DNA of 64,000 bases from a virus (IMGVR_UViG_3300045988_019421:31999-95998); one strand, 5' to 3'; counted from the first letter of the stretch, positions 328 to 63,940 are shown. Made by a program: numbers and translations. Notes: a model not told the origin generated them from the sequence alone.

Positions 328-2625
328 ATGGAACTTAGTGAATATCCCTTTTATCAATTCTATTATGAAGAAGATAAAGGAAATAAATATAAACACGCAA
401 GAGACTGTGGATATAAAGACCCATTCGACCATTTTTTAATAGGAGAAAGTGGAGGGTTCTTAATGAATATTGACCCACATAAGCGTTTTGTTAATACAGA
501 CCTTCTACGTCCTGCTGCTGTTACTTATGAGAAGGAAGGAGTTTATACTAAATTTGCAGTAGATAGTATGCCTCATATAAACTTTCGTAAACAGGAAACT
601 CTACGTAGACTTGTTGGTTTTAAAGCTCCTTGTCTTATGGATACTAGAACTGGCGAGATAGAAGATGTCTATATTACTGGTGAACATTATAATTTTATTA
701 ATTATGGTCGTATTCTTAAACTAGATACTAAAACACTTCGAGTAGAAGAAGGTAAAGTTACTGGTCGTAAGATAAGAGGATTTCCTAGATTTATTGATTG
801 CCAATGGTGGTACTTCTTAATTAAACAGTTTTGTCGGGAGAACGGTTTGTTCCTTATTAATGATAAGACAAGACGTGGTGGATTTAGTTATATGGAAGCT
901 ATTGGTTCTGCTAACTTTATTAATCTTACTCCTAACCGTGCTGTTATTCATGCTGCTAGTGATAATAAGTTCTTGGTTCAATCAGGTGGTTTATCTGACT
1001 TTATGAAGAAACAAATTATCTTCTATGAATCTAATACTCCTTTTGCTAGAGGTATAGCTAAGATTGATGCTAGTGATTTTATCTTAGGTTACAAAGACCC
1101 TAGTACAGCTATTATTGATGATAACAGTTGGAATAGTGCTTGTATATCTGTATCTACTAAGAATAATCCTTCTGCTGCTGTTGGTAAGGATGCCGGAGAA
1201 ATCAAATGTGAAGAGATGTCAGAGTTTGAGAACTTTGATGATTTTATGGATGTAACTGAACCTACTCTAAAGACTGGCTCTGTTACTACTGGTTTTCTTA
1301 ATGCTTGGGGTACTGCTGGTAAAGCTAACGCAGGTTGGGTAACATTTGAACAAAATTTCTATGACCCTAGAGGTAGAAACTTTATGGCATTTGAAAATGT
1401 ATGGGATAAAGATAGTAGACCGGAAGTATGTGGTTACTTTAAACCTTATTGTTGGGGACTTGAAGGTTATAAGATTGGCGATGATAATCAAATTGCTACT
1501 CTTACTTCTCTTGATGATGATGGTAATTCTGATATAGCTCTTGGTTTTCAGATAGCAGAAGAAGAACGTGCCGCTGAAAAAGCTAAGAGTAAATCATTTG
1601 CTAAGTTTATTAGTTATTGTGGACAATATGCTAATATGCCTAGTGAATCATTTAGTTCTGTAAGTGAGAATATATTTAGTAGTGAGATATTAGATGAATG
1701 GGAACAAGAACTAAAGATGTCTAATAAGTATAACTTCTATATAGATGGTAAGTTTGTAGAGTATGATTCAGATAATTTCGAGTTTATTCCTAATGAACGT
1801 ATTGCTGCTACTGGTGGTGTATTTAAGAAAGACTACTTTGATTATATTAAGAATGTTCCTCGTCACTCTAATGAAGACCCTGAAGGTTGTATTCGTAAAT
1901 GGTTTAATCCAATTAAAGTAGAATACATAGATAAAAAGACAGGTCAGCTAACTAAAGGTACTCCTCCGGGAATATATAGTATTAGTTATGACCCTGTTGG
2001 TATTGATAAAGATAAGAAAGAACTTACTAATAAACATTCACATAATAGTATTAAAGTTTGGATGAATCCTTGTATATATAATGGTTATCGTCCTAGATTA
2101 TGTGCTGTATATTATGGTCGTCCTGATGAACTAGAAAAAGCAGATAGAATCTGTTATTACTTTGCAGTTACTTATAATTGTCTTGGTACAACTAATGTCG
2201 AGATTAATCGTGGTGAAACAGTTAGTAATTTTAAGAAGTGGAAAGCTATTAGATACTTAGGTTATCATCCAGTTCATTTATGGGATACTAATATTAATAC
2301 TAAGAAGATTAATACTATTGGTTATGATATTAGTAGTGAAACAGTTAAACTTGATGGTCTTCGAATGTTAAAGGAAATGTTGTATTCCCCCATAGGGAAG
2401 TTCGAGGATGGTCGTGATATGCTTGTTCTTCATACTATATATGATTATCAGTCAATACTAGAGTTAAAGAAATGGTCTAATACTGGTAACTTTGACCGTG
2501 TATCTGAAATGATTGTTCGTGGTATTGAATGGGCTGCTAATGATAAGTTTGCTAAAAAGCAGCTTGAACATAGACAGAGAGTGCAAACAGAGAAAGAAAA
2601 CTTTTGGAATCGTAAACGTTATTAA
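328..2625 (+). CDS. terL: Terminase large subunit
   Basis: 765-aa ORF. It has a P-loop-like segment KTRRGGFSY and C-terminal RNaseH-like nuclease signatures (ISYDPVGID, AVTYNCLGTTNVEINRGE) typical of TerL. It sits just upstream of a small ORF and a portal-sized ORF, as in crAss-like phages. Confidence 0.8.
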   Translation: MELSEYPFYQFYYEEDKGNKYKHARDCGYKDPFDHFLIGESGGFLMNIDPHKRFVNTDLLRPAAVTYEKEGVYTKFAVDSMPHINFRKQETLRRLVGFKAPCLMDTRTGEIEDVYITGEHYNFINYGRILKLDTKTLRVEEGKVTGRKIRGFPRFIDCQWWYFLIKQFCRENGLFLINDKTRRGGFSYMEAIGSANFINLTPNRAVIHAASDNKFLVQSGGLSDFMKKQIIFYESNTPFARGIAKIDASDFILGYKDPSTAIIDDNSWNSACISVSTKNNPSAAVGKDAGEIKCEEMSEFENFDDFMDVTEPTLKTGSVTTGFLNAWGTAGKANAGWVTFEQNFYDPRGRNFMAFENVWDKDSRPEVCGYFKPYCWGLEGYKIGDDNQIATLTSLDDDGNSDIALGFQIAEEERAAEKAKSKSFAKFISYCGQYANMPSESFSSVSENIFSSEILDEWEQELKMSNKYNFYIDGKFVEYDSDNFEFIPNERIAATGGVFKKDYFDYIKNVPRHSNEDPEGCIRKWFNPIKVEYIDKKTGQLTKGTPPGIYSISYDPVGIDKDKKELTNKHSHNSIKVWMNPCIYNGYRPRLCAVYYGRPDELEKADRICYYFAVTYNCLGTTNVEINRGETVSNFKKWKAIRYLGYHPVHLWDTNINTKKINTIGYDISSETVKLDGLRMLKEMLYSPIGKFEDGRDMLVLHTIYDYQSILELKKWSNTGNFDRVSEMIVRGIEWAANDKFAKKQLEHRQRVQTEKENFWNRKRY

Positions 2626-2627
2626 TT

Positions 2628-2894
2628 ATGAGTTGGTTAACAGAAAGCAACAGGTTAAAACATTTCCTCTACGCAATCCCATGTGGATTACTAGGAATAA
2701 TGTTAGTAGTAGGCTTAGCCGTAGGCATGGAATTTAAAGATAAAATGTATGGCGGTAAGTTTGATTTCTTGGATATTTTAGCTACATTGCTTGGCGGAAT
2801 GATAGGATTCGTATTAATGCTAGTTATAGTAATAAGTACGGGTGCTATTAATTGGTACATTAATATACTTATTAAACTAAGCGAATTGTTATGA
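2628..2894 (+). CDS. Small membrane protein (2-3 predicted TM helices)
   Basis: 88-aa ORF packed tightly between TerL and portal, with an ATGA overlap at its 3' end. Hydrophobic stretches: LLGIMLVVGLAVG and LLGGMIGFVLMLVIVI. Confidence 0.6.
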   Translation: MSWLTESNRLKHFLYAIPCGLLGIMLVVGLAVGMEFKDKMYGGKFDFLDILATLLGGMIGFVLMLVIVISTGAINWYINILIKLSELL

Positions 2895-5323
2895 TTGATG
2901 CTAAGCTAAATGCTCGACTTGGGGACATGCCTAAACAGCGTGTCCCTAATTCTGAAAAGGATGAATATTGGGCTGGTAGAACAATAGATTATTGTATTGC
3001 TGCCGGACTAGCGTGTAATGATAGAACTAAGACAGAACAGCTTCTTGAAATACTTCATGGAGAAATGCCTGATGAGTTCTATCGTAAAACACTTAATCCT
3101 TATAATGCTACGAAGGAAAACTTTAAAAGATTTCCTGCTACTCTAAGGAATCTTGATATTATTAATGATGTAGTTCGTCGTTATTTATCAGAATATGTTA
3201 AATCTCAACATGAATTTATTGTTGGTGCTAATAATCCTGAAATCATTATGGCTCGTGATGCTGCTATTCGAGAAGATATAGTTAAGCGAGCTATGTTAGC
3301 GTTTCAACAAGAACTTCAAAGGAGAATACAGCAACAACAAGCTGAAAATGCTCAACTAGAAGCTCAAGGACAACCAATACAAGAGGTTGACCCTGAACAA
3401 TTAGCAGCTGATGCAGAAGAGTTTGAAAAGAACTTTATTGATAATTATATAGATGAAATAAGTGCACAAGCTCAACAACTATTAGAAATTATTGATGATG
3501 TTCTTAATAACGAGACAATAATTCCAGTCGAATACTTTAACTATATCGTTACAGGGGAAGTTTATAGTTTCCATACTGTTCGTGGTAAAAAACTAGTTAA
3601 AGAGTGGGTTCCAACTACTGATATGTTTCCTGTTCCTAATGGAGAACAAATGGTATCTAAGTATGATATTGTAGCTCGTAGAATGTTAATGAGTTACAAT
3701 CAGGTAATAGACCAATTCTCCGATGAATTATCAGATGAACAACTAGAGTTTATAACTAAATATTATAATCCTAGTACAGTTGGTGCTACTCGTACACTTA
3801 GTCTTAATGCTTATACTTATTATTTCCCTGAAAAGTGTAAAAGCTATGAGAACGATAATAGAGAGATATTCCCTTCTGATGGTTATGATTTAAGATTAAA
3901 GAACGGAGAACTACTTGAAGTATGGCATGTTAATTGGAAAGGTTATACACAAGTTAAGATACTAAAGTACATTAATGAGGTAGGATTAGCTGATGAGATG
4001 ATTGTTCCTGATGATTTTGAATTTAATCCTGAACTCGGACATATTGAGATAACTTCTGTATATAAACCACAAGTTTACGAAGGTTATCGTATAGGAGGTC
4101 AACGTTTTGGTATATATCCAGGTGGTGCTAAACCTATTCCTTTCCAATTAGACGACGATGTTAGATTGCAGTATTGTGGACTTCAAGAAGTACTTCCTCA
4201 AATGGGAAGATTCTCTATTGTAGAAATACTTACTCCATTTCAAATATTAATCAATATCTTCTCTTATCATAGAGAGATGATGATAGCTAAGAACAAGATG
4301 TTTATTCTTGTTGCAGCTAAATCTTTATTTGGAGAAGATGCAGAAGAAGCTATTTATAATATAGCAGCAGAGGGGATATTTCCTTATGATGATGCAGAAG
4401 ATATTAATAGTACTAAAGCACAATCTATTAAAATGCTTGATGCTAATATATCTGGTTATATTACTGAAATATCTAATCTTATTGAATCTATTAAAGCTAG
4501 TGCTCGTGAAATGGTAGATATGACACCACAACGTTATGGACAAATAGCAATTAGTGCTGGTAAAGGTACAACAGAAGAAGCTATTATTCGTGGTTCAATG
4601 GGTACAGTTATTATTAACTATATGTTCGATAAGTTCCGTGAGGACGAATATCTAATAGATTTAAATAATTCCAAGTTAGCTTGGATAGATGGATTAGATA
4701 CTTCTTACTATGATAAGTCAGATAGAAAGCAATATGTCTCTCTTAATGTAAATAATCATACTCTCGGACAATACGTAATCAAAGCTAAAAACTCTGATAG
4801 AGAAACAGAGAAGTTTGAACAACTTAAAGAGTGGGCTTTCAACGCTAGTCAAAATGGAGATTTAATGTCTGCTGTTGCTGCTATTACTTCCGGTAATATA
4901 TCCAGTCTTAAACTAGCTATTAATCGTTATCAAGAGATTCGTCAGAAGAATGAAGAATCGCTTAGACAATTAGACCAACAATTAGAAGAAGCTAAGAATA
5001 AAGCTGTTCTTGAACAGATAGCTGCTAAGGGGGAACAAGATGCTAGGCTAGCAGAAATCAAAGGTTATTATGATTTACTTGCTAAAGGAATGGATACAGA
5101 AGCTGCTATGGCTGCTTTAGCTAATCAACCTGTGCAAACTGCTTCACAAGATAATTCTGCTGAACTATCATTGAAACAAGCTGAACTAAATGAAAAGAAA
5201 CGAGCTAAGGATTTAGATATGATTAACTCTGCATTAGATAGAGATAATGAACTAAAGATAGCTAAAGAGAATAAGAATAAATATGATAGTCCTAAGTCTA
5301 AATCTAGTTCTACTAAGAAGTGA
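2891..5323 (+). CDS. Putative portal protein
   Basis: 810-aa ORF two genes downstream of TerL. It has a Gln/Glu-rich coiled-coil segment and a basic C-terminal tail. Size and synteny match crAss-like portals. No diagnostic motif was verified. Confidence 0.65.
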   Translation: MIDAKLNARLGDMPKQRVPNSEKDEYWAGRTIDYCIAAGLACNDRTKTEQLLEILHGEMPDEFYRKTLNPYNATKENFKRFPATLRNLDIINDVVRRYLSEYVKSQHEFIVGANNPEIIMARDAAIREDIVKRAMLAFQQELQRRIQQQQAENAQLEAQGQPIQEVDPEQLAADAEEFEKNFIDNYIDEISAQAQQLLEIIDDVLNNETIIPVEYFNYIVTGEVYSFHTVRGKKLVKEWVPTTDMFPVPNGEQMVSKYDIVARRMLMSYNQVIDQFSDELSDEQLEFITKYYNPSTVGATRTLSLNAYTYYFPEKCKSYENDNREIFPSDGYDLRLKNGELLEVWHVNWKGYTQVKILKYINEVGLADEMIVPDDFEFNPELGHIEITSVYKPQVYEGYRIGGQRFGIYPGGAKPIPFQLDDDVRLQYCGLQEVLPQMGRFSIVEILTPFQILINIFSYHREMMIAKNKMFILVAAKSLFGEDAEEAIYNIAAEGIFPYDDAEDINSTKAQSIKMLDANISGYITEISNLIESIKASAREMVDMTPQRYGQIAISAGKGTTEEAIIRGSMGTVIINYMFDKFREDEYLIDLNNSKLAWIDGLDTSYYDKSDRKQYVSLNVNNHTLGQYVIKAKNSDRETEKFEQLKEWAFNASQNGDLMSAVAAITSGNISSLKLAINRYQEIRQKNEESLRQLDQQLEEAKNKAVLEQIAAKGEQDARLAEIKGYYDLLAKGMDTEAAMAALANQPVQTASQDNSAELSLKQAELNEKKRAKDLDMINSALDRDNELKIAKENKNKYDSPKSKSSSTKK

Positions 5324-5693: not shown

Positions 5694-7004
5694 ATGGGAA
5701 CTTTTAGTAGTAATAATGATTTAGATTTAAGTACTGGTAGTATTGATAATGGCGATACTACTAATACTGGAGGTCAAGGTACTGGCTCTGGTGCTAACGG
5801 CAATCCTGCCGGACAGGGACAACAAGGTGCTGGACAAGAAGGACAACAAGGACAAGGTGGAAGTGCTGATACTAGTACTGTTGATAATGGAGGTGAAAAC
5901 CAACAGGGACAACAGGGACAAGGAGAAGGACAGCAAGGAAGCTCCTCTACGGGGGAAGAAGTGGTATTATCAGAAGGTGATACTGTAAACGTTGATGGTG
6001 TAGATTATACTATTGATGCTAACGGTAATGCTCTTGCTGCTGATGGAACTGTGTTCCGTACTGCTGCTGAACTTGCTGAACTTATATCTCAAAATGGTTC
6101 TGAACCAAGTATTCTTGAACAATTACAAACTCGTTTCGGTTCTGATTTTAAAGATGAAAATGGTAATCCTATTGTATTTGATAATAATACAGAAGGTGTT
6201 GCTGCTTATGTTGATACAGTAATTCAGAATAGAATTGCAGAAGCTCAAACTGCTGCTCTTAATAATCTGTTTGAAACTTATCCACAAGTAGAACAAGTTA
6301 TCAATCATCTTAAACTTAACGGTACTCTTGAAGACTTCGTAGAAATTCCTGATAGAAGTCAAATTACTGTTAGTAAAGATAACGAAGAACAACAAGCTAC
6401 TTTCATTCGTGAAGAATGGAAACTTAGCGGTAAAAAAGGAGATGTAAATAAATTCATTGACTATTGTAAGAACGCTGGTATTCTTTATGATACTGCTGTT
6501 GAATCTAAAGAAGCTGTTGATAGCATTTATGAATCTCGACTTGCTGAACAGAAAGCACAAGTAGAAGCTAAAGAAGCTGCTGCTGCTGCCGAAGAGAAAG
6601 CATATTGGGATAATGTAGAAAAGACTATTAGTAAAGGCGAACTATTAGGTTATAGTATTCCTGAACAGATTCAATGTAACAAAGACGGAAAGAAAGTAAT
6701 GCTTAGTCGCAAAGACTTCTTGAAGTATGTGTCTACTCCTGTTGACAATGAAGGTAATACAGCTTATATGTTAGACGAAGCTAAAGTTGATTCTAATGCT
6801 CGTATGCAGGATGATTTACTTAAAGCATTTCTTAGGTTTACTGGTGGCGATTATGCTAGTCTTGTCGGTATGGCTGTTAACAAGCAGAAAGTTCTATCTA
6901 TTAGAACTACCGCAGCACAAACTACTGGTAAAAGGACTGTTATTATCAATAGTAAAGGTAATAATTCTAAGACAGTTGATAATGACCAACTAGTCTTGAA
7001 CTAA
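5694..7004 (+). CDS. Hypothetical structural protein, scaffold-like (Gly/Gln-rich N-terminus, coiled-coil C-terminal half)
   Basis: I prefer the ATG at 5694 over the ORF-track TTG at 5634 because of the promoter geometry. The gene lies between portal and the MCP-sized gene. It has a low-complexity GQQGQG region and Ala/Glu/Lys-rich helical segments. Confidence 0.5.
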   Translation: MGTFSSNNDLDLSTGSIDNGDTTNTGGQGTGSGANGNPAGQGQQGAGQEGQQGQGGSADTSTVDNGGENQQGQQGQGEGQQGSSSTGEEVVLSEGDTVNVDGVDYTIDANGNALAADGTVFRTAAELAELISQNGSEPSILEQLQTRFGSDFKDENGNPIVFDNNTEGVAAYVDTVIQNRIAEAQTAALNNLFETYPQVEQVINHLKLNGTLEDFVEIPDRSQITVSKDNEEQQATFIREEWKLSGKKGDVNKFIDYCKNAGILYDTAVESKEAVDSIYESRLAEQKAQVEAKEAAAAAEEKAYWDNVEKTISKGELLGYSIPEQIQCNKDGKKVMLSRKDFLKYVSTPVDNEGNTAYMLDEAKVDSNARMQDDLLKAFLRFTGGDYASLVGMAVNKQKVLSIRTTAAQTTGKRTVIINSKGNNSKTVDNDQLVLN

Positions 7005-9716: not shown

Positions 9717-10370
9717 ATGAAAGTAGCAGAGATACATAACGAGTTCATGCTTCTAGCTCAACAAATGGGCATGAAAACTGTGCGAGCAATACTTCCCGAA
9801 CAGGTAGACGAAATAATCAATTTAGAGACTATCGAATATGTGAAAGATGTTTTCTCTCGTAAAGGTAATCGTGAACTCGATGGTATCTCTGATAACGTTA
9901 TAAGATTAACAGAACTTAGTCCTCTTCATACTAGTATTAAGATTGAAGCTAGACAAGAAGATATAATGTTTGGTACTGGTTATAAGATAGAGTTAAACGA
10001 CTGTCCAAAACCCATGTTCTATACATCTGTCTACTCCTTTAAGGGGAATAAGTCTTATCGTTGTAGATTAATAGACTTAGACTTAGTGAGTGAAACGATG
10101 AACGATTATCATTCAAAGTCTATTGTTATAAGTCCTATATGTTATAAGACTGAATCTAATATTGAAGTAATAGCGACATTTGAGATAGAGAAGTTCTTAG
10201 TTAATTATATTAAGTATCCTACTCTAATTAGTATTGCAACTGATACTACGAATGAATTATCAGATATTGCTATGCACGAAGTTATTAAGAGGGCTGTTAA
10301 TACCTTTAATGCTATCTCTAATAATAATAGTTATGAGAAAGTTTCAAACGAATTATCTAAATTAGAATAA
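9717..10370 (+). CDS. Hypothetical structural protein
   Basis: 217-aa ORF, tightly packed, in the head/neck gene block. Confidence 0.7.
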   Translation: MKVAEIHNEFMLLAQQMGMKTVRAILPEQVDEIINLETIEYVKDVFSRKGNRELDGISDNVIRLTELSPLHTSIKIEARQEDIMFGTGYKIELNDCPKPMFYTSVYSFKGNKSYRCRLIDLDLVSETMNDYHSKSIVISPICYKTESNIEVIATFEIEKFLVNYIKYPTLISIATDTTNELSDIAMHEVIKRAVNTFNAISNNNSYEKVSNELSKLE

Positions 10371-10371
10371 A

Positions 10372-11262
10372 ATGGAAAGACTGTTGTTTGCAGGTAATGT
10401 TGCATTAGCTACTACTCCCGCTACTCTAGCTGCTGTTAATGCAGCAGGTATTACAGAGGGTGCTGTTGCTCTTTACAACAATGAAGGTGCAATCATCTCG
10501 AAAGCTCTTACTAAGAACATTCCGATGTTTACCTTGTTTGTTGGTGGTGGAGCATTTGCTAATAAGAGCAAGTATACCAATATTGTATCTGATATTGATA
10601 CTAGACGTTTCTCTTATGTTAAGAGTGTCTATGCTGCCGGAACTAAATTTAGTGCGGAAATTACTGTTCCTACCCCCGTAGAAGGAAAGGATTATACGTT
10701 AACTATGGCTAAAGCTCATACTGTTCTTAATGAACGTTATAAGTGGTCAGCTAGTGAACGTGCTCGTGAAGGTGATACTGCTGCTATTATTGCTAAGAAG
10801 TTAAGTACTCAACTTAATTCTCTTGGTAAGAATGAAGGATTTACTGCTAGTGTTGCCGCTGCTAAAATTACCGTAACTGGTACTGATTATGAAGCATGGA
10901 ATCTGATTGCAGGAGATTCATTGTTTGGAGTAACTATTACTACTACAAAAGCTGTAAAACCAATTAATGATGATGCTGCTCTTAAAGAATTACAGATTCG
11001 CTGTATTGGTGCAGAAGGTATTAACTCTACTAGTAATGATGCTCGTAAGTTATATACTTTGCCGGAATTCTCTAATGCAGGTGGTTGGACAGTGTTTACA
11101 CTAACTTTCTATCCGCATCGTGACCTTCGTAGTGGTAGTACCGAAAATGTTAAAACTATTATTCATCTTGCTATTCCGACAGGAGCTGCTCAAATAGCTA
11201 CTCTTGAAACAATATTTGCATCTGTTAATACTCCGGCAGCAGCAGCAGCAGCAGGAGCTTAA
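10372..11262 (+). CDS. Hypothetical abundant structural protein (possibly capsid auxiliary/decoration), poly-Ala C-terminus
   Basis: 296-aa ORF, Ala/Thr/Gly-rich, with strongly biased codons. It ends in (GCA)6 at 11236-11253 and is followed by a strong stem-loop. Confidence 0.6.
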   Translation: MERLLFAGNVALATTPATLAAVNAAGITEGAVALYNNEGAIISKALTKNIPMFTLFVGGGAFANKSKYTNIVSDIDTRRFSYVKSVYAAGTKFSAEITVPTPVEGKDYTLTMAKAHTVLNERYKWSASERAREGDTAAIIAKKLSTQLNSLGKNEGFTASVAAAKITVTGTDYEAWNLIAGDSLFGVTITTTKAVKPINDDAALKELQIRCIGAEGINSTSNDARKLYTLPEFSNAGGWTVFTLTFYPHRDLRSGSTENVKTIIHLAIPTGAAQIATLETIFASVNTPAAAAAAGA

Positions 11263-13129: not shown

Positions 13130-16100
13130 ATGAGAAAAGGAATAAGTATAGGTCAGCCTCTTGTTAACAATAGTGTAGATGATAATTATAATCCTCTACC
13201 TGATGTTGATGCTAAGTATGGACCTTATAATAGTATTGCAGAAGCTCTGAAAGAATTGTCTCCTGAATTACGTTCGGTAGGTCTTACGGTAGGTATTAAA
13301 CAAAATAATATTATTAATGAGTATTGGTTTAATGGAGGTATTGAAAACAAGAATCTTGTAGTTAAGCAACAAGGTGGTGGAGATGAACCAGTTCAAACTG
13401 TTTATATACAAGACAATCCTCCTGCTAATACAAATTCTCTTTGGGTAGATACTTCTGGATTAGGGGCAGCTCTTGAAGAAGATGAAAAGCTAGCTCCTAT
13501 AATTCAATCTATTCAAGTGATACAAAAGTATCTTGATACTATTGTCCATCAAAGAGATTTAATTATAAATCCAGGTCATGTTAGTAATACTTTTACTAAG
13601 TCTGTATTAAAAGAATATACTCCTATTGACCCTAATACAGGACAATTAGCAATTAGAGTTGCTGCTGTTGGTGAAAGTCTTGAACCTGAAACAGAAGAAT
13701 ACGAACCTAATACTAAAGCGGTTCGTGGGCATTATGGTACTCTTAAAGAAATCCAAGATAACTTTAATAATTTTGTAGATTACGAACTTCTAATTGCTAC
13801 TGATGTAAAACGTTTATATACCAAGATTAATGGAGAACCTGTTAATCTTACTGGTACTAGTTCAGGCGGTGGCGGTAGTATTGATTATGAAGCATTGGAT
13901 AAATTAGATACTATTGGCTTCGTTGCTCCTAATGGACAAGTATATCGTGTTAAAGTTAATAACAACGGACAACTAGTAGTATATAAGAAAGAATTAGATA
14001 TACCACAAGCAGAACCTACTGGTGGACAAGAAGAACCTGGAACTGGTTGGGTATATGTAACTACTCTATATCTACAAAAGTTATATATTAACTCTTTGTA
14101 TTGTGGCGGTATTACTAGTGACGAATATAGTTATAATCCATGCTCTCATAACTTCGTTGAACTTAGTAATCTTACAGGTAAAGATGTATCTCTTAATGGA
14201 CTATCATTACAGTATGGTACAGAAGGTGGAAATTGGGAAGTACTCCCTTTATGGGGGAATATCAAAGCAGGTTCGACATTCTTAATTAGAGGTGCTCAAT
14301 GTTCAGTAATAAATACTAATACTACTCGTATTAAAGTTGAGACTTATGATATGGAATGGTATGCTAGTGATGGTAATCTTATTAAATTTGATAATAAGAA
14401 AGCTAAGTTTTTCTTGACTTGGGGAACGTCACCTAGTTCTGTTGCGAATCCTTATAATAACACGACTTCCCCTATAAAGGTATCTAAAGGTTATATTGAT
14501 TTAGTTGGACTTCAAATCTTAAATGCTGGTGATGCTGATAAAGTTGATGCTGCTGAAAATACTGCTTATGGTTATCTTACTAGTAAGTACTTATTTACTA
14601 AGTACTATACTATGGACAATGTTAAGCAAGCTACTAAAGCTCTTAGTGCTAGAAATAACGCTAATGATATGTACTTTGTTAATCTCGAAGCAAACATAAT
14701 ACCTAGAGTAGATTCTTATACTCCACGTGCTAGCTTTGAGAACAAGAATATATTCTTTAATAAGACTTTACTAGACCATACTAAACCTAATAAGGTTACT
14801 ATGACTTTAGGTAGAAAAGCTTGTTATACTCTTAATGAATCTAATGAACCTAATGATGATGCTAGTAGATGTTTCAATTGGGTGTCAGTAGGTTACTATG
14901 ATGAATATTTATGGTATCGTGCATATAGAAGTGACAATAGTTATACTAATTGGACTAAAGTAGAATCATTTAAAAATGAGACTGGTGTTCGTAAATATTA
15001 TAATCGTATTCGTGCAATAACTACTGATGGTACTCCTTTTACTACTCATAAAGTAATACTTACTCATTTAGGAGAACAATATGATACTCATACAAAGGAT
15101 AAGAATATTTATTATGAATATTATGTAGGTAGAGACGAAACTTATAAGAGCGATATTCGTAGATTTGTAGTTATGAGTGAAAATGCAGGGAGCGAAGTTC
15201 TTAACTTTGTTCAGACTTCCGACCAACAAGGCTTTAATTGGGATGAATATAATGTATGGAAAATAACTGCCGGTCAAATAAAGAAAGACTTTAATAGATA
15301 TGAAACCAGTAACATATCTGTGTGCTACTTTATGATTAATACTGGCGATATGACACAGAATGGTAATCGTATTAATGAATGGTTAGATTATGAAGCAGGA
15401 AGAGAACCACTATACGATATTGCTGAAATGGTAACTGTTGGTAACAATGACTTAACTCCGGCTAATGTATATGTTCTTGGTGATGGTGGTGATAACTCTA
15501 AGATTAATGCTACTAATATTAGATTCTTCTATTGTTACGAAATGGATGAAGATAATCCGCCAGTATTTACTGTTGAAGATAAAGAAATATTTGTCGAATC
15601 ATTATATTCTTTTGATGTTGGACATAATCATTTCTTATGTGTTAATAGTGAGATAAGTGCTAATACTGAAAGAGACGTTTACGGACTTACTACTACTGGT
15701 GTGATGTATGATTTGATAAGACAATGGTGTGAAAGAGATGATGCTAATGCAATTAATGCTAAAGCTAAGATAGCTTATTGCCATGAAATGCCTTTTACTA
15801 TTATTACTCAAAATCTTATTAATTCATTTTATTGGAATAATGAAGAAAACACTAGTGTTGAGAGAAGTGGTAGTAGATTGAATTTCAATACAACTAAAGC
15901 TAACGCTTATTGGTTCTCAAAATTCTTACAGACCCACAATTACCGTTTATGTCTTGGCGGACATAAACATACTTACAGTTGCAGTTATCCGATTTTAGAG
16001 AACGAAAACAGCTCTATGAAGCCTATCATACAGGTCACTGCGGACGTTTTAAAGAAGGATTTTAATTCTGATGAATTATATACGGAAACTGCCGAAGGTG

Positions 16101-24468: not shown

Positions 24469-24522
24469 CAAAAAGTTGATAATAGTATTATGTAATTAAA
24501 CAAAATTTAGTTTCTTGTAGCG

Positions 24523-24574
24523 TCCCCCATAAAGGAGTGAGTATTAACAGTAATCACATCTCTTTAAGGGGGAA
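24523..24574. repeat. Intergenic imperfect inverted pair of the TCCCCCNTAAAG(G)AG motif
   Basis: TCCCCCATAAAGGAG (24523-24537) and CTCTTTAAGGGGGAA (24560-24574) are separated by 22 nt. Confidence 0.85.
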
Positions 24575-32772: not shown

Positions 32773-33005
32773 GTACTATTAGTTAGAGTAGTAAGTGAGG
32801 GTCGGCTAGCAATGGTCGGCTCTTACAGTATATACATCTCTTTATGGGGGAATAAAAACTACGTCCCACGCTCCTACGCTTTCACAGAAGCCCATCATTG
32901 CATTTTAGTGCCTAACCTTAACTTACTATTATCCGATAGACTTGCGTGCCTCTATGAGCCTTAAAATGCGTCATGTGTATAAAAATGTTTACAATGCGAA
33001 TAACT

Positions 33006-46700: not shown

Positions 46701-49700
46701 AACCAAAGACTGCTAAAGAGAAGAAGTTAAAAGAGACATTAGATAAAGTAGTATCTAAAGCTAATTCAGGTGTTGTAAATAAAGCTAATATTAATAACTT
46801 AGAATTTACAATAGTAAAACCTTTTGCTAGTTTAGGAGATGTTAGTAGAAAACCAGTTAAAGTAAGTGCAATAGATGTACGTGTTAGTAAATTTGGCAAT
46901 GTTAGTATTGATGGAATGGATACCAAAGGTAATATCATTGCTGATGTTACTATTGATGAACTAAATGCCGCTATTGCTATCGGAGATATTACTTATGTAG
47001 ATACTAGTAAATCTGATGAATCTGCTCCTGCCGATACTAACGTTCTTGAATCATCTATATCTGATAATGACTTAGAAGGTCAACGCCAACGTATAGAAGA
47101 AATAAATCTAATTATAGATTTATATAATCAGATACAAGGTAATCAGATAGAAGGTAAGACATTTACTAGTCTTAATGATATGATGGTTTATTTACAACAG
47201 TTGAATCCTAAAGCTGTTAATTTGTATAATGATATTAAGATTCTAGCTAATCGTCAAATAGTAGATGGTAAGATAGTTAATGTTGATGAAGAGATTAAAA
47301 CTCCTTCTGATATTATACAAGAAGCAAGTAAGACTTTAGATAAAGCTATTGCAGAGAATAAACAGAATACTAAAGATAATGGTTACTTCTTTAATTTAGT
47401 TAATTTAAATGATAGTAAGGTTTACTCTCGTATCGGTCAGTTAAAGACTAATAATACAGTAAATGTAGAACTAGATGAAAATGGTAATCTTATTGTTAAG
47501 TCTCGTGGAATTAAGATAGGTGAGTTCCCTAAGATTGGTTATAATAATGGTAATGTTGAAGTTATGAATCAAGGTTGGAGATATACTGTTAAGAACGATA
47601 GTATAGATTTCATAACTCAACTTCAATCTATTATTGCTAGCGAAGAACCTGCTGCTAAAGAATTTGTACAACTACTTAATAATATACGTCGTCTATATCG
47701 TGTTCGTAATAATCCCGAAGTTGAGGGAACATTTGGACATCAGCTTAATGCTTTACAAGAGAATGTTTATTGGAAGAATCTAACTAGTTTGTTTGGTGAT
47801 ACTCAAACTAATCTATTAGATAGGATTAAACATCTTAATAATATTATATTCTTTAATAATGCTCTTAATGTTAATCAGTCTAACTTTAGTACCATTGTTA
47901 ATGAATCGTTGACTAATTGGATGAATAAACTCAAGAAGTCTTATATTGACATTAATAACTTAAAGTCCTCTATTAGTAATACTAAATCTAAAAAGAAACG
48001 TTTAGTTGTTGGTCGTACAAGTTCAGGTAGTGTTATTTATGCTAGAGATAAACAAGGTAATCCTATATATCGTAAGTTCGGAGATGTAGCTACTAGTGAA
48101 GCTACTGACGGTTATCGTCTAATAGTAGGAGTTGATGGAGGAGTTGCTGATATTAAATCTAATAGTATTATTGCCGCTAGTCGTATTCCTAGAGGTGTGG
48201 TTGGTATGACTATTAAAGATTCAGAAGGTAGACTTATCGCTGTTACTAGTCGTGAGAATACTATGAGTAATAGTGAAACAGAAGCTACTGAATACACTAA
48301 GAGGTTTAATGAAGGATTAGATAAGTTATTCCATTCATTAGTAGATGCTACTCTGCAAGGAAATACTGACTTACATCAACAACTATTAGATGAAATATCT
48401 AAGTATGTAGGTAAACAAAAAGCTCTTTATGGTTATGAAGTTGTAGGTCGTGCATTTCGTCCTCTTAATAAGATTGGAGCTACTATTTACTTTAACGTTG
48501 CTGATAGAAATGTAGCATTTGCTATACCTGGTGAAACTAAACCTAGAAGACTTATGGCTCGTATGCCTAATGGTTTTGTTCCTACTAATAATCATGGTAA
48601 CTTTAGCACTATGATGGAAGGAGTATATGCTACACTAACTCGTAATGTTATTAATTCAGCTATTCGTGGTGAATCTAATTTATTTAGAATAGTAGACGGT
48701 AAACTACAAGCTAAGATACCTAATATACTTCAAGATGAATGGATGGACACAGGTTACAGTAGTTATGAAGAGTTCGTAGCTAAAGACGGAGTATTAGTTA
48801 CAGACTTAGGTAATGTTACTGACAGTAAAGGCAATATTATTAGTAACTTTAATTATGTAGGAGATGTATATAATCGTAATATTACTCTTATGAATCCTAG
48901 TCGTAGTGCTGGTCGTACTAACGCGGCTGACGCCGCTGTTTCCCCCATAGAGGAGCAACAAGTTGTATCTCCTGTTGCTACTCCTGACCCACTTGCTAGT
49001 CAAGATAGTGCTCCTCAAGTAGGTACTCTTATGGAAGTTGCGCAAGCTAATACTAGTAATCCTAATCTATTATCTGTTATTTCGGCATTAGAATCTGCTG
49101 GCATTGCTCTTAATCCTGATATTGAAATAGTAGGTGAAAAAGGTAGATTTGCAGGAATAGTTGCTGGTGGTAATACTATTACTCTTACTAATAGATTCGA
49201 TACTCTTGAACCTGAACGTAAAGTACTTACTCTTATACATGAAGGTGTTCACTATCTACTTAATGATGAACGTGCTAATATAGAGCAATCATTTGGTGAC
49301 CTATATGATAAGTTTAGTAGTTTTATTAATCAGGATTCTGCTTTAGTAGAAGAATACGGAAGATTCTTAAATAGTGATAAACCTAGAAGCGTAGCTATTG
49401 AGGAATTTGTAGTTGAAGCTATTACTAATCGTACATTTGCTAGATTACTTGCTAGGATTAAATATGATTCTAAAACTAATACTGAATCTAATAATCTATT
49501 TACTAAGATTGTTGATGCTCTAGTAGAGATTATAGGTAAAGTTGGTAATATAGATAATACATTACTTGGTGAAGTTCGTAATCGTTTATCTACTATTGGA
49601 TTAGAAACATCTGATACAGCTAGCACTACAAGTACTGTTCACGACGATGTATTTGATAGAGCAGAAGAAGATACAGGAGTTCCTACTAATGATGTTTTTG

Positions 49701-53000: not shown

Positions 53001-56000
53001 ACTATTGTGTCTGACGAAAATGGTAAACCTAAGATAAAAGAAGAGTTTAAAGATTTACGTAAATCAGAAGCTAGACTTAATTATCATTATCGTAAAAGTA
53101 TTCTCGATAGTAATGGCAATCCTACTGGTAATGTATTTAAATTTAGAAGTTTACTTATTGATAAAGTCAATAAGATTGACAACTATAAATATAGTAGTAG
53201 TGAGATAGCCAAAAGAGTAGATATGAACTGGTTATTCGAGGAAGGAAGCGTATTCTCGCTTCTTTACGGGGGAAAGAATAGTGAAATATCGCTAATACAA
53301 GATGAGAACGGAGAATATAATATTAGACTTACTGGAGGACTTCGTAATTCTGTATATAACTATATAGATAACTACATTAATTATAGAATACAAGAAGCTA
53401 TTACTAAATACAGTTCTGATAAAGAGTTTGTAGATAAGTATAAAAATGCTAGTCAAGAATCATTCAATGCTTTCATTTCTGAAATGGTTCTTAATTATGA
53501 GATTCAATATAATAATCTAAATGATATATTCTTCGGAGATGAAGCATATTATAAAGATTCTCGTGATACTATTAAACGTAATAAAGAATACCAAGCCGGA
53601 GGATTAGCTTATGCAGGATATGATTTGTATAATGTACAGAAGCATTTGGGAGATATAACAGTAGCTCCTAATAAAACTATTAGTGTAGATAGTAGTTTCA
53701 AATATATTACTCTTGAAGATGTTCAAAGTAGTGGTAAAGTTCTTGATGATTTAAAGAAGCAATTAGATATAGCTAATGTATCTAAAGAAACTAGAGCTTT
53801 TATACTTAAACAGTTCTCTAAAGATAAGTCAGAAGTAACAGATGCTCAATCATTTATTACTCTTGATGAATTTGTTCGTAGAATGTATCTACGTGGAGAA
53901 TATGATAGTTATAAAGATTTAATCGAAGCTCTTTATGACGAAACTAAGCCTATTGATAATGTTAAATTAGGAGAATTATCTAAGAAGATACAAGTTCAGA
54001 AGAACTTCTATTATGACTTAGAAATAGACAATGATGCTAAGTTAGCTAATCCTATTCAGATTAAAAATGCAGAATTTGTACTAATACCTAGATTCTTAGG
54101 TAATAGTGAACTTGGTGCTTTAGCTAAATATATGACTGATAATAATATTGGTCAGGTTAACTTTACTACTACTGAAAAAGCTACTACTAATAGAGTACTA
54201 GAGTTTTGGGATTCTCATGGGAAATTCCCCTCTAAAGAGAAGTTGAAACGGTTTAACTTGGATATCCAAACTAAGTATAAAACTGGTTGGTATTCTAATC
54301 TTTATACCCAACAAGACATTCCTCAACACATGGATGGTGAGAATAAGGCTGGATTGCAGATTGTTAAGAAGCTAATAGATAATATTGGTAATACTCCCGA
54401 AGGTCAATCTCTTATTAAAGATTTCTTTGATAACTTTACTGCTAATATTCAAGATAGTTTTAAAGATGCTGCTTCTCGTATTGGTGTAGAGATTGATGCT
54501 AAAGGTAATGTAGTATACGAAGGTAATCAAGTTAAGATTGATAATAATAAGTTCATATCTCTTATTAAAGACGAGTTAACTCGTAGAGGATTAGATAGTA
54601 ATTATCGTAAGTATGCTGAAATAAATCCTGAAACTGGATTGCCTTATATGCCTACTTGGACTAATCTAGTTCGTAGCAAGATAGAAAATATTGTAAATAG
54701 TATATTTACTAATCGTGTTACTCGACAAGTACTTCCAGGATTTCATGCTAGTCAAGTTTCAGATATTGGTATGACTGAACTATCAGGTCGTAGTGATTTA
54801 AGAGATTTGATGCAATCAAGAGTAGAAGAGAAGCATGGTTATTCTCTTGGTCGTAAACTAACATATCATAAAGACGGTAGTCAGATAGTAGAAATACTGT
54901 TACCTAAATGGATGGTAAAGGCTTATAATACTTATGATTCAGAAGGTAATCTAGTTAATGAAGTTACTCTTGAAGATTTACAATCTGCTGGACTTGATAC
55001 TATGATTGGTTATCGTATTCCAACAGAAGGTAAACAATCAGTAGCAGTAATGAAAGTTGTAGGTTTATTAGATGAATCTCAAGGTTCTACTATTGTTGTT
55101 CCTGATGAATGGGTATTACAAACTGGTGCTGACTTTGATATTGACAGTATCTATGGTATTTATCATACTGCTACATTCGATAAGAATGGTAAACCACAGA
55201 AAGTTGAATATATAGAAGGAGAAGATGATGCAGCAGTAAATAGAAGATATAATAACTATCTGTTTAATAATCTAAGTAAAGAGAATATTCAAGATGCTAG
55301 AGATATTGCAATAGATTTAAGTCAAGAAGGACTAAGCTATGCAGAAGCTTATGAATCAGCTATTACTAAATATGCTGAACAAGGAGGACTTTATTCTAAA
55401 GAAGAATTTAGTAAGCTAACAGTAGCTCAACAGAATACTCGTGATGCTCGTAACAATAAGATAGTAGATACATTTATTAAGATAATGAATCTACCAGTAT
55501 CTATTGGTGAAAACTTATCTTCTAGTAACTTTGAAGATATTAAAGCTGCAAAAGCTAATATCTTTGAAGGTTTATCAGAGACTTATCGTAATATTAATTC
55601 AGTAATTGCTCAAAATTGGTATCGTGATGCTAATATGTCCGGTGCGCGTCTTAAAGCTATTTCTGTTAATCGTGACAACTTCGCCTCTATTAGTAACAAA
55701 GCTAAAACTATTGTTGACGGTGCACACGGTGGTTTTAGGTTTACTTATACATATAGCACAGAGAAAGAAGCAAAAGACGCACAAAGTAAACTAAGAAAAC
55801 GTTTTAGAGATGTAACTAGAAAAGGTAAAGAAGTAACAGTAGACCATAATCAGTTGGGTTGGAGTTACGATAATCTTAATATAGATAATCGTTTGATTAC
55901 TCCTTATTCTTCTGAAACTACTGCTCTTATTCTTGATGGTGTAAAAGAAGGTGGTGTTCCTAATGTAGATTTGTATACTTTTGATGTATATAAATCTATT

Positions 56001-59000
56001 GTAGATTGTGGTGCTAATTATGAAACATCTATTCTATTTATTAATCAACCAGTAATAACTGAACTTATTGCTAGACAAAATGCTAACGATAATGTATTCG
56101 GAGAGACTGGATTTAATCCTCTTATTGGATTAAGACGAGACATGTATGTAAGATTAGCTAAAGCTGTTGGTATTCCTACTAATAGTATTACTAAAAAGAC
56201 TCGTCTTAAAGATGTTAAGAAAATGCTTGAGAGTAGAGGAATAGAGATTAACGAAGATGAACTTCTTGAAGAAGGAATAAAAGTAACTGAACTAAGAGAA
56301 CATCTTAAAGATGATGTAGAGAATGTTAGTTCTACTAATACAGATAATCTCATATATCAAATTAAAGCGTTAAGAGCATTTGAATATTTTAAAGAGATAG
56401 GCGACCAAATCAATTCCAATATGATGGTTATCACTAGTGATAAGTTTGGTGCTGGTAAATCTGCTAATGAAATAGATAATGTTATTAATCGTATTAATGA
56501 TATTAAGGAGAATAATGTTGGTCGTATAAAAAAAGGTCAACCTGTTCTTAAAGCAGTTACAGAAGAAGGTAACAAGTATCTAATAGATGCTATTTATCCT
56601 AAGACTAATTTCAATACTATTAATGATATTAATAAGGATGAACTAGAATCTGCATATCCTTCTTTATATTATCAGTTAAAGTATAGTTGTATAGCTACTG
56701 AAAAGATTATTCGTGATAGTGAGATATTCAAAACTCAAACACCGCAATTCCGTGAATTAGTTAGTAAGTTTGGTATTCGTAATCTTCAAACTATTCAGCA
56801 GTTAGAGAGTTTCATTATTAATATGAGCCAAGCACAGTCTAACTTTGTTAATACTAATAGATTCATAACTAAAAGTGATAATGAGTTTATACCTAGCTAT
56901 AATATAAATCTTATTAGTAGCCAACAAGATACTCGTGCTAGATTATATGGATATACTGATATAGTAGGTAGTTTCGATATGTCTGATATGTCTGAAAAGA
57001 ACGTAGAAGCATTTATGAAATTATCTCCTGCCAATAAAGTAGCATTGATTCAAAGATATACTTCTGATAATAATCTATTTAAGAATTTAAATGTTGAGTA
57101 TAAAGGTCGTCGTAATAGTTATAATAGAATAACTATTGTTGATAGTACTATATCTACTGAATCTCAATATCAAATGTTCCGTAATGCTTGGCATAATAAT
57201 AATCCATTTATTAAACTTGCTACTATGGATTTGATAAGATATTCTATGGTAGTAGAAGGTTATAAATTTAAAGGTGGTACAGTTAGTAAAATTATTCCTG
57301 TTGAATTATTATATGGACAAGATACTGGTATTGATTCTGATAATGGAGTTTCTTCAGCTACTAATATTATTAATGATTCAGATAGAGCTATTAATAGCAT
57401 GATTCAATATGGTAGTGAGACAGGAACTTATGAAAGAGCTAGCAATGATGCGGCAACTATTGAAAAGTTACGTGACTTATTCTTTAGAACTAATCCTAAT
57501 AATCCTGATGTATTAGTATTTGAGAATAAGAAGTATAAAGAATCCAATAAGATAACATTTAATAGATTAGATGTTGGAAGACTTAGCTTTAAAGAAGCTC
57601 AAGAACGCGGAATGATTACTGGTAGTGAGAATAATCGTAGGTATCGTTATTATGCTAAGACTAATGATAACAATAAAACTCTGCGATTATATAAACTAGT
57701 ATATTATAACGATACTGTTTATATGTTACCTACTAATCCATTAGAACAGAATGAAATTGGAGAAGTAAGTGTTAATCCTGATAATAATAGAATGTTTCTT
57801 CCATTAGATATATTAGAAGATGTTTCTATTAATCAATATGATGCTGCTTTTATTAGTTCTGTAAATATCGGTATTACTTCTGATACTCGTAAGTTTATGG
57901 TTCTTCCTACTGTATTTGAAAGAGGAGCTGATACATTAATCGAAGAAGTATTTCCTAATAGTATTGTCTTGACTTCCCCCATAAAGGAGCAGCAAATTGA
58001 TACTTCTCGTAAGTACATTGTGGCTATTACCGATAATAATACTCTATTAGAAACTATTGAATCTCTTGATGCAGCTGGTGTTCATGATTATGTAGTTGCT
58101 GCTCCTAATATGAATTATAATAATATTCGTAGGATTATTAATGAACGTAATAATGCAGATATTGCAGCTAAGAGATTACAAGCAGCTATGACTAAGCTAG
58201 ATGCTAATGAAGTTCAACTTAGAAAGAAGAAATCAGATAATTCTGAATCTCCTTATTATGCTCAACTTAAAGCTAGCATTAATCAAACTATTAATGATGT
58301 AAATGTTAATGGTATTGGATTTGTTCCTGTTTTACAAACAGTGATAGACAATACTGGTTTTAGACCCAATGGATATTTCAGATATGAAAAAGAAGGTAAT
58401 GTTTATATCGTTACTAACTTAGGACGTATAACTACTAAATCGGTTAGTCTTACTCCTGATTATTCATATAGTAGAAAAACTATTATTAATAGTGTGTCTC
58501 AACTAGAATTTCCTAGACGCAATGCTTTAACTCAAGTAGTTAAAGAAAATGCTAGATTAGATAAATTCGCTAACAATAATATTATTAGAGTTCAGACAGA
58601 AGAGAACTTTATTAATGAAGATGTACTTGAATCAGCATTAGTAGATAATGATAGAGAAATTAACGAATATATTTCTCGTGTAATTGAAAGTGTTGAGAGA
58701 AGTAATGCTAATGTTGAAGAAGCAGCTCTTAATGATGCTTTCCGTTCATTCGCCTCTATTGACTTACGTTCTAATACAGCTACTAAGTTAAATGATAACT
58801 TACGTGAGCAAGCACTGAAAATCATTAACGGTTATACTAATAGACGTATTGATGATTTCTTATTTGATATTCATAATTTCTATACTACTTATGTTACTAA
58901 TCCTGATGGTACTTATAAACTAGACGAAAATGGTAATAAGATAGTAATGGAGAAATGGGGTATAACTAATAAGAAGTTATTCGACCGTATGTTAGAAGAT

Positions 59001-63594: not shown

Positions 63595-63623
63595 ATATGT
63601 ATGTTAATTAATTGTTAATACCG

Positions 63624-63655: not shown

Positions 63656-63692
63656 GCAATTTCACTATTATTTTATACAGTTTTGCGTATAA
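63629..63692. repeat. Two exact 21-nt direct repeats TTTATACAGTTTTGCGTATAA (iteron/operator-like)
   Basis: Copies at 63629-63649 and 63672-63692, 43 nt apart start to start. Each contains the inverted half-sites TATAC-N8-GTATA. Confidence 0.85.
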
Positions 63693-63840
63693 TTTAAATC
63701 ATCTAACTAACTGATAATCAATGAATTAACATAAAATTAACACTATAATAAGATAAAGACTTCTTATATAATATAGATTTATCATTTAGATATGCAAATA
63801 TACTATTAAATTTTTAATTAACTTAGCTTTACTATATCCC

Positions 63841-63940
63841 GCTCGCCTATCGGCTCGCTTTCTTCCCCCATAAAGGAGTAGGTTTACCGATAATTCCACT
63901 CCTTTATGGGGGATTTAGCGAGCTTGCGAGCGTAGGCAAG
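63841..63940. repeat. About 100-nt imperfect palindrome built on a perfect inverted pair of the TCCCCCATAAAGGAG motif
   Basis: TCCCCCATAAAGGAG (63864-63878) and CTCCTTTATGGGGGA (63899-63913) are separated by a 20-nt spacer. The outer arms are GCTCGCCTATCGGCTCGCT and AGCGAGCTTGCGAGCGTAGGC. Confidence 0.9.

Follow-up and report, generated by a model that had tools for sequence, protein, structure and literature searches.

Why should an AT-rich phage genome confine nearly all of its runs of five or more C or G residues to one asymmetric word, and why should that word be written on both strands and inside unrelated genes? The question is raised by the viral DNA stretch IMGVR_UViG_3300045988_019421:31999-95998 (hereafter the window, 64,000 nucleotides in length; GC content 32.1%), which shares 95.6% identity with Bacteroides phage crAss002 (Jahgtovirus secundus, Intestiviridae) and whose counterpart there is roughly 4.2-64.9 kb of the crAss002 genome. 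A preliminary description of the window, made by eye, had proposed that a dispersed motif, TCCCCC-N-TA-R-AG(G)AG, accounts for every such run. A machine count finds 21 such runs in the window, 19 of them within TCCCCCNTA or its complement (dinucleotide shuffles gave a mean of 0.62 and a maximum of 3); the remaining two are one-base variants of the motif core. One of the two, the C5 run at 10673-10677, reads ACCCCCGTAGAAGGA and had been overlooked. The other had been listed as an exception at 37483 with one extra base; the extra base is real (minus strand TCCCCC-TG-TA, one base longer than the core), but the G5 run is located at 37477-37481. C5 and G5 runs are thus not common outside the motif. 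In coding DNA, one or two were seen outside it where codon-preserving shuffles led to an expectation of ~5, a shortfall that is not significant.

The motif itself is strongly enriched. The 15-mer, at up to three mismatches, matched 22 times in the window as against 2.8 expected, and a weight-matrix scan returned 22 sites of TTCCCCCNTARAGGAG compared with 0.1-0.3 in shuffles, an enrichment of roughly 70- to 200-fold (Table 1). Eleven sites are on the plus strand and 11 on the minus strand. The start positions given previously for both orientations proved correct within 1-2 nt, as did the degenerate copies at 10034, 14467/8 and 18225/6, whereas the copy at 54226 exists but falls below the matrix threshold. 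The copies are distributed over 12 open reading frames (ORFs; at least 11 had been claimed) and use every one of the three frame registers and either orientation; five further copies are non-coding. The last figure is an excess, since only 4.3% of the window is non-coding (5 of 22 copies intergenic, P=0.002).

To what extent the encoded proteins could account for these numbers is answered by shuffles that preserve them. Fourteen coding copies of the core were observed; ~0.3 were left after synonymous-codon shuffling with the protein kept or after permutation of codons within each ORF. Because the codon-preserving shuffles leave so few copies, the constraint must act on the DNA, and an origin in peptide or codon usage is rejected. 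The word is selected as DNA and not as peptide, as the preliminary description had supposed from the variety of frames. Both orientations and three frames are indeed used, and islands of nucleotide conservation are found at syntenic sites in relatives (see below). The peptides differ with orientation: sense copies mostly encode S-P-I-(E/K)-E and antisense copies S-S-T-G-E or L-Y-G-G.

The arrangement of the sites is orderly. Orientation alternates in 19 of 21 steps along the window (permutation p=3e-4), and alternation was also observed in the complete genomes of crAss002 (28 of 32 steps, p=1e-5), Rudgehvirus jaberico (22 of 30, p=0.013) and the prototype crAssphage, Carjivirus communis (21 of 31, p=0.04). 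Gaps between copies of the same orientation are more even than expected, with a coefficient of variation (CV) in the window of 0.34 for plus and 0.37 for minus copies versus 0.88 in the null (P=4.5e-4 and 0.002), and the smallest same-strand gaps there are 3796 and 3498 bp (P ~1e-4). In the three complete genomes the CV is 0.31-0.55 versus ~0.9, with minimum gaps of 1.9-2.9 kb. Over eight sets of sites, the minimum same-orientation gaps of 1.9-3.8 kb have P values of 1e-4 to 6e-4 in seven and 0.016 in the eighth; the maximum gaps are below the null mean in every set, not always significantly (P from <1e-4 to 0.11). Copies of opposite orientation can sit just 44-60 bp apart. Simulation of two independent regular lattices reproduced most of the alternation (0.70-0.81 expected), which is therefore mostly explained by each orientation forming a regular lattice of its own. 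No significant global periodicity was detected by a Rayleigh scan over 1.5-12 kb. In crAss002, 7 of 14 distances from a plus copy to the next minus copy fall within 3460-3904 bp; this spacing of ~3.6 kb is absent from jaberico and the prototype crAssphage, with the exception of one syntenic pair.

This order does not follow transcription. The ratios of sense to antisense copies within genes were 12:15, 11:12 and 12:11, and motif orientation is unrelated to the direction of transcription. Between 18% and 28% of the copies in the site sets are intergenic, non-coding DNA being enriched 3- to 5-fold, and 70-80% lie inside ORFs, many of them in the middle of giant genes. Each strand thus keeps one site per ~4-6 kb, whatever the gene direction, frame or coding status; the sites occupy spacers where these are available and are elsewhere written into giant essential genes. 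While the preliminary description had the motif right, its most informative properties had escaped it, namely the alternation, the even spacing within each orientation and the family-wide dialects described next.

The complete crAss002 genome contains 33 copies, and its replication module, which is encoded on the other strand, accounts for some of these. In jaberico the word reads T..TGTAAnCTCCCCTGTARAGGAG (31 copies; dialect CCCCTGTARAGGAG), in the prototype crAssphage GG.TAGAC(C/T)CCCCGTRGAGGATGGA (32 copies) and in cr110_1 CCCCGTAGAGG (26 copies); the dialect in the last two is GACCCCCCGTRGAGGATGGA. The core common to the dialects is CCCC-(N)-RTA-R-AGGA(G), within a whole word of 16-25 nt. 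Dialects of the motif, at ~30 copies per genome, are thus present in other members of the Intestiviridae, and within each phage lineage the word changes in concert. Nine pairs of syntenic sites were found, six with jaberico and three with the prototype crAssphage, in which position and orientation relative to the gene are kept. The genes concerned, which include those for virion RNA polymerase, primase, helicase and gp32, are 27-62% identical in amino acid sequence; identity at the nucleotide sites is 79% over the 14-nt core versus 43% over the ±46-nt flanks. Other sites are shifted by 50-100 nt, flipped or lost, and siteless homologues align without indels or target duplications. Since they do so, sites arise by substitution and not by insertion, and the pattern looks like that expected of selected sites with turnover rather than of mobile insertions. 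Enrichment and positional conservation are thus both present in related genomes. Spread of a mini-repeat by gene conversion, one of the origins suggested earlier, does not agree with these alignments, in which similarity stops at the motif, no indels occur and positions are conserved across subfamilies. A mobile repeat of the repetitive extragenic palindrome/bacterial interspersed mosaic element (REP/BIME) type or of the miniature inverted-repeat transposable element (MITE) type was likewise rejected: the majority of copies lie in coding DNA and are not palindromic, resemblance does not continue past the motif, and comparison with empty sites reveals no insertions.

Two scans bear on the source of the word. 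In cellular genomes (at least 120 loci), the matches listed were single matches in unrelated taxa, none of them in Bacteroides, and in viral contigs many of 90-97 kb had several matches each. A host-derived word was rejected on this basis. As the motif also differs between phages of closely related hosts, recognition by a host DNA-binding protein, another of the early suggestions, is unlikely, and the motif is probably specified by the phage. Outside the Intestiviridae, crAss001 (Steigviridae) is without the C-run word and carries CTCCAGAAG 27 times versus 1.7 expected. This word shows the same spacing pattern, with a CV of 0.46 for plus copies (P=7e-4) and the maximum possible alternation (P=0.004). 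A palindrome, TTAGCTAA, is over-represented in crAss001 and in cr116_1 (also Steigviridae), with 30 copies versus ~5 expected.

Single copies form no hairpin of their own. With 12-nt flanks they folded no better than when 3' flanks were swapped between sites, and their fold energy is below that of random windows owing solely to the GC-rich core; an apparent compensatory stem in the crAss001 copies was lost in the same flank-swap test. Close opposite pairs, by contrast, form long palindromes whose arms reach past the motif. Both inverted pairs noted previously in the window, at 24522-24574 and 63863-63914, are of this kind (Table 1), and a palindromic pair in the prototype crAssphage (28058-28202) folds with -36.9 kcal/mol. 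The close pairs are located at junctions of oppositely oriented gene modules and beside RepL genes. One pair of the prototype crAssphage occupies the intergenic gap directly upstream of repL gp88, and directly upstream of the same gene lies the predicted origin of that phage (PMC10983915). Non-coding copies contain additional conserved parts, which in crAss002 are an upstream GC-rich CGCT/GCTCGC and a downstream GGAGTG-N3-TTACTGTAA, and in jaberico an upstream TGTAA. The coding copies therefore resemble the bare minimum of a larger site for protein binding. A weak pyrimidine- and C-rich patch was seen at +15 to +35 nt downstream of the core in crAss002, jaberico and the prototype crAssphage (C 0.22-0.26 versus 0.15 background), which close pairs explain in part only. 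No AT-rich unwinding element adjoining the sites was found.

What, then, would require an oriented word at regular intervals on each strand? The explanation that we tentatively prefer, at less than even confidence, is that the copies are asymmetric, strand-polar sites for a DNA-metabolism factor of the phage that co-evolves with them, most likely for strand-specific initiation of replication through priming or nicking. The sites would constitute a genome-wide set of recognition sites, kept by selection on DNA, for a putative phage-encoded reader, and the process served would require coverage of both strands everywhere, as when replication forks cross the genome both ways. Strand-specific initiation is favored because forks moving in both directions are the most natural process to treat the strands separately. 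The function might be primer synthesis, loading of a primosome or helicase, or nick-priming, strand by strand, in which case the sites would be fixed start points of discontinuous or second-strand synthesis. The purine that occupies the variable position after the C run, followed by the conserved purine-rich tract, would fit an initiation point without proving one. Both the phage-encoded reader and a process that handles the two strands or directions separately are what we infer from this arrangement.

Several observations weigh against initiation of synthesis at these sites. Known primases read ~3 nt or structured single-strand initiation signals, and we know of no primase that reads linear words of 16-25 nt. 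The switch in orientation at origin and terminus that simple bidirectional replication from one origin predicts is not seen, and the model therefore needs forks travelling both ways, whether by a rolling-circle, a recombination-dependent or a multi-origin mode. A scan of crAss002 replication proteins, three annotated HNH endonucleases aside, revealed neither a dedicated nickase nor an HUH enzyme. Alternation is weak in cr110_1 (15 of 25 steps). No comparable word was found in cr116_1, and the repeat of cr127_1 (Crevaviridae), ~30 nt long and for the most part intergenic, is a different one; for these reasons the feature is not universal in Crassvirales. The cr127_1 repeat, TAATGGCCACAAGGGCGAGAGGTGTTCCG, is present in ten copies in both orientations, with three close pairs (Table 1), and looks like a different kind of regulatory repeat. 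A search of the crAss002 replication module for the reader protein yielded just DUF932, a superfamily 1 (SF1) helicase and a primase without a Pfam match.

An unlikely but by no means far-fetched alternative is that the copies are dispersed asymmetric operators or roadblocks for a genome-wide repressor or nucleoid-organizing protein, tied to plasmid-like or carrier persistence, with monomers binding single half-sites and dimers the palindromic pairs at regulatory junctions. An asymmetric word of 16-25 bp in ~30 copies per genome would suit such a protein, as would the 3- to 5-fold enrichment in non-coding DNA, the longer multipartite consensus there with its repeated TGTAA-like elements, and the palindromic pairs within the divergent promoter or RepL region; the prototype crAssphage reportedly lives as a phage-plasmid (PMC10983915). 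Against this, 70-80% of the copies are inside ORFs, their orientation is independent of transcription, unlike that of stoperators, no candidate repressor was identified, and simple binding does not predict even spacing within each orientation beside adjacent opposite copies. Such spacing would be natural for a Chi-like polar "self" signal that attenuates or switches a directional helicase-nuclease or translocase, either phage-encoded or hijacked, and so protects phage DNA or stimulates recombination from any double-strand end: a polar signal is needed in both orientations everywhere, each evenly covered, and ~5 kb per orientation resembles the density of Chi in E. coli. The phages also encode a RecT recombinase, a PD-(D/E)XK exonuclease, an SF1 helicase and a Gam-like nuclease inhibitor. 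This last protein, however, lessens the need for a protective Chi. Known Chi sequences, moreover, are 5-8 nt, host-specified and skewed with the direction of replication, whereas the motif is 16-25 nt, unskewed and different between phages of closely related hosts, with single cellular matches among those listed. A Chi-like role is consequently rated as decidedly unlikely.

The remaining explanations carry still less weight. Site-specific nicks or base modification in virion DNA, for packaging, ejection or anti-defence, would accord with the word length and copy number, which are within the range of known nick motifs, also found inside and outside genes, and with the DNA ligase that the phages encode. 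Yet the nicks of Rembedalsseter and T5 are on one strand while the motif alternates between strands, torsion relief or packaging predicts no even spacing per strand, and the scan of crAss002 replication proteins described above gave no nickase; this role appears improbable. Transcription signals, whether promoters, pause sites or terminators for the virion or host polymerase, of the N4 hairpin or the T7 linear style, are a poorer fit still and highly improbable. The step from CCCCC to RTARAGGAG, a purine and then a purine-rich tract, loosely recalls the -1/+1 region of T7-type promoters, and palindromic pairs directly follow gene ends. But the genes form a 63-kb block with a single direction, in which half of the copies are antisense, and in jaberico and the prototype crAssphage sense copies are neither enriched upstream of gene starts nor nearer the next start codon than random positions, for which reason promoters for downstream genes were rejected. 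Intrinsic terminators were rejected as well, the palindromic pairs being without T-runs and the mid-ORF sense copies being unable to act as terminators because the ORFs that hold them are giant and essential. The early suggestion of hairpin-type signals that start or end transcription by the virion RNA polymerase is likewise unsupported, for single copies have no site-specific stem, and the copies ignore the direction of transcription and are not upstream of genes. No Rfam families or tRNAs were found among the copies. In a study of phi14:2, from another subfamily, sigma70-like middle promoters were described and no common motif for the virion polymerase.

Long-range pairing of neighboring plus and minus copies in mRNA or single-stranded DNA (ssDNA), closing kilobase loops for processing, stability or replication intermediates, would draw on the alternating orientation, on the very stable hairpins of close pairs and on the recurrent distance in the crAss002 lineage. 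By inspection, the partners do not covary at the two variable positions; that distance is missing from jaberico and the prototype crAssphage, and two independent lattices largely explain the alternation, which makes pairing very remote. A word with no function of its own, whether an artefact of codon usage, a peptide motif or a selfish mini-repeat propagated by insertion or gene conversion, can scarcely be entertained. Sense copies in three consecutive giant virion genes (43591-43620, 48940-48969 and 57974-58003) do agree at nine further bases (GGAG-CAGCAA-RTT) and in the peptide SPI[EK]EQQ[VI], as might result from gene conversion between sites or from a signal in the peptide. The codon-preserving nulls nevertheless fall short of the counts; copies occur in three frames, in both orientations and in non-coding DNA; siteless homologues are free of indels and target duplications; and position and orientation are kept across subfamilies while the word shifts in concert and the spacing remains ordered. 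Codon nulls, homologue alignments, spacing and synteny effectively refute this explanation.

Crassvirales, among them the most abundant virus of the human gut, may conceivably use hard-wired, sequence-defined and strand-specific initiation or loading points, a long asymmetric word per 4-6 kb per strand with a co-evolving phage reader, although we consider this unlikely. If true, Okazaki fragments or second strands would start at these fixed sites, or a directional DNA machine would load there, and initiation at fixed points on each strand would be a new way to organize DNA synthesis; to our knowledge, no genome uses such a mode of replication or genome maintenance. The crAss-like phages are the dominant human gut viruses, and their replication, persistence and DNA organization are largely unknown. 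If the sites were instead bound by a repressor, they would be of immediate relevance to the debate over whether crAssphage persists in a plasmid-like state. The motif is a strongly selected, easily scored cis-element and offers a handle for finding its reader protein. It may explain part of the sequence conservation inside giant virion genes, long-read data can be searched at its sites for replication starts or nicks, and its dialects could serve as lineage markers in viromes. Because it is present in the prototype crAssphage and in the cultured crAss002 and jaberico, it can be tested at the bench now. No earlier description of these strings, or of such a motif in crAss phages, was found in the literature searched.

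The individual copies are listed in Table 1. The plus strand of the window encodes TerL (large terminase), portal, capsid and tail proteins and the giant virion RNA polymerase genes. At the right end, on the minus strand (63103-63594), is a gene for a RepL-type plasmid replication initiator (Pfam PF05732, E=9e-6). The AT-rich region upstream of it (63595-63860) contains two direct repeats of TTATACAGTTTTGCGTATAA (~63631 and ~63672), which are followed by the long motif palindrome; a 0.7-kb segment of the RepL region of the window is swapped for unrelated sequence in crAss002. Other differences from crAss002 are a 2.26-kb insertion at 29704-31962, which lies between a plus and a minus copy and is flush with neither, and whose four ORFs (29843-32137) include a DUF7841-domain ORF; and an insertion of ~600 bp (52281-52881) together with a second variable patch (55228-55401), both inside the gene for the giant virion RNA polymerase. 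The most divergent part of the window is 25148-29168, within the 1452-aa ORF 24866-29224 (gp22 of crAss002), where identity is 68-84% or no match is found, as expected of a host-range or tail-fibre protein. That the sites mark mosaic or recombination boundaries was considered and rejected, the homology breakpoints between the window and crAss002 not being tied to them.

Table 1. Copies of the motif in the window with weaker forms and palindromes, and the different repeat of cr127_1
Feature	Coordinates	Strand	Context
Motif copy TTCCCCCATAGGGAAG	2385..2400	+	In TerL gene, sense, peptide SPIGK; score 19.0
Motif copy TTCCCCCGTAGAGGAG	5942..5957	-	ORF 5634-7004, antisense, peptide SSTGE; syntenic copy in jaberico
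Degenerate copy ATTCCCCTTAAAGGAG	10034..10049	-	Full C5 copy in crAss002
Variant copy TACCCCCGTAGAAGGA	10671..10686	+	Syntenic copy in jaberico; overlooked in the preliminary description
Motif copy TTCCCCCATAAAGGGA	14244..14259	-	ORF 13130-16591
Degenerate copy TTCCCCTATAAAGGTA	14467..14482	+	No call in crAss002
Degenerate copy ATCCCCTATAAAGAAT	18225..18240	-	2626-aa ORF
Copy GTCCCCCATAAAGGAG	24522..24537	+	Intergenic; left arm of palindrome
Copy TTCCCCCTTAAAGAGA	24559..24574	-	Intergenic; right arm of palindrome
Copy TTCCCCCATAGAGTAG	29622..29637	+	Overlaps stop codon of ORF 29329-29637
Copy TTCCCCCATAAAGAGA	32837..32852	-	Intergenic, upstream of tail ring-protein gene; followed by TATACTGTAAG, extended non-coding form
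Copy TTCCCCCTTAAAGAAA	34975..34990	+	ORF 34742-35473
Copy TTCCCCCGTAAAGGAG	38625..38640	-	ORF 35473-39336
Copy ATCCCCCGTAAAGGAG	39585..39600	+	ORF 39333-41009
Copy TTCCCCCGTAGAAGAT	43129..43144	-	ORF 41027-43795
Copy TTCCCCCATAGAGGAG	43591..43606	+	ORF 41027-43795; peptide SPIEEQQV
Copy TTCCCCCGTAGAGGAG	46627..46642	-	ORF 43799-49858
Copy TTCCCCCATAGAGGAG	48940..48955	+	ORF 43799-49858; peptide SPIEEQQV; syntenic copy in jaberico
Copy TTCCCCCGTAAAGAAG	53259..53274	-	Gene for giant virion RNA polymerase; peptide LYGG; jaberico and prototype crAssphage have syntenic copies
Copy TTCCCCCATAAAGGAG	57974..57989	+	Virion RNA polymerase gene; peptide SPIKEQQI
Copy TTCCCCCATAAAGGAG	63863..63878	+	Intergenic; left arm of long palindrome
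Copy ATCCCCCATAAAGGAG	63899..63914	-	Intergenic; right arm of long palindrome
Half copy, TCCCCCTTA only	5026..5034	-	Portal gene
TCCCCCTGTA	37477..37486	-	Core one base longer, resembles jaberico dialect; without AGGAG part
Weak copy TTCCCCTCTAAAGAGA (TTCCCCTCTAAAGAGAAG)	54226..54241	+	Under matrix threshold
Imperfect palindrome on two copies	24515..24582		Directly after stop of 2626-aa gene; ssDNA fold (24505-24590) -14.2 kcal/mol, z -4.3
Long palindrome, arms GCTCGC.../...GCGAGC	63840..63932		Upstream of RepL gene, junction of two gene modules; ssDNA fold (63835-63945) -32.7 kcal/mol, z -8.3
Repeat TAATGGCCACAAGGGCGAGAGGTGTTCCG of cr127_1	1777, 11356, 11920, 19707, 28706, 28871, 42048, 42232, 59325, 82342 (cr127_1)	Both	Mostly intergenic

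Dispersed oriented words are known from several systems, with which the motif can be compared. Phage P1 has dispersed 17-bp C1 operators and mycobacteriophage L5 roughly 30 stoperators. Like these, the motif is an asymmetric word of at least 13-17 bp with tens of dispersed copies (22 in the window and 31-33 per full genome, as against ~20-30), some of them in inverted pairs, and the word varies between relatives. The P1 and L5 sites are mainly in short intergenic spaces or promoters, and those of L5 are co-oriented with transcription, whereas the motif is found mostly in ORFs, blind to transcription and evenly spaced in each orientation, with 18-28% of copies intergenic and no excess upstream of gene starts. 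With the Chi sites of RecBCD and AddAB it has in common a polar word dispersed through genes at about one per 5 kb. Chi, in contrast, is a short, host-specified word, abundant in the host chromosome and skewed with replication, while the long motif is specific to phage lineages, its orientations are near equal and alternate genome-wide, and the cellular matches listed are single.

The nick motifs of T5, phiKMV and tf/Rembedalsseter are phage-specific asymmetric words of 9-20 nt, in ~4-14 copies inside and outside genes and conserved within groups. The phiKMV motif is ~20 nt long, and T5 nicks are confined to one strand. In Rembedalsseter, WACTRTGAC occurs in 13 copies, and all copies and the accompanying drops in coverage are on one strand (PMC11780129). 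The motif described here differs in alternating between strands (11 plus and 11 minus in the window) and in having two to three times more copies. Primase sites and the single-strand initiation (ssi) and single-strand origin (sso) signals are strand-specific, set the start of the complementary strand and are needed on whichever strand turns single-stranded; the even coverage of each orientation of the motif would fit such a role. Primase sites are, however, very frequent trinucleotides, and ssi and sso signals are structured hairpins of 70-200 nt, few per replicon, whereas the motif is linear and hairpin-free. We know of no precedent for a fixed linear word of 16-25 nt per 5 kb on each strand. 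As with phage N4, the present phage comes from a group that packages an RNA polymerase in its virions, and the word is short and conserved. The three promoters of N4, which are upstream of early genes, consist of a stem of 5-7 bp and a loop of 3 nt; single copies of the motif have no stem-loop of their own, and its ~30 copies are spread genome-wide, mostly in late genes and half of them antisense.

The uptake signal sequences (USS) of Pasteurellaceae and the DNA uptake sequences (DUS) of Neisseriaceae offer a further comparison. Either orientation is equally frequent, and copies are built into coding DNA wherever the frame tolerates them, with reportedly even spacing, intergenic inverted pairs and dialects, as is the case for the motif; the over-represented word is 9-12 nt or longer. 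These sequences serve uptake in competent bacteria and number thousands per chromosome, whereas the motif is present in ~30 copies, regular in each orientation, in a lytic or plasmid-like phage, where an analogous part in packaging or uptake would be conjectural. In a broad sense the motif can be classed with other dispersed, oriented genome words, but it departs from each of the named families in at least one defining property.

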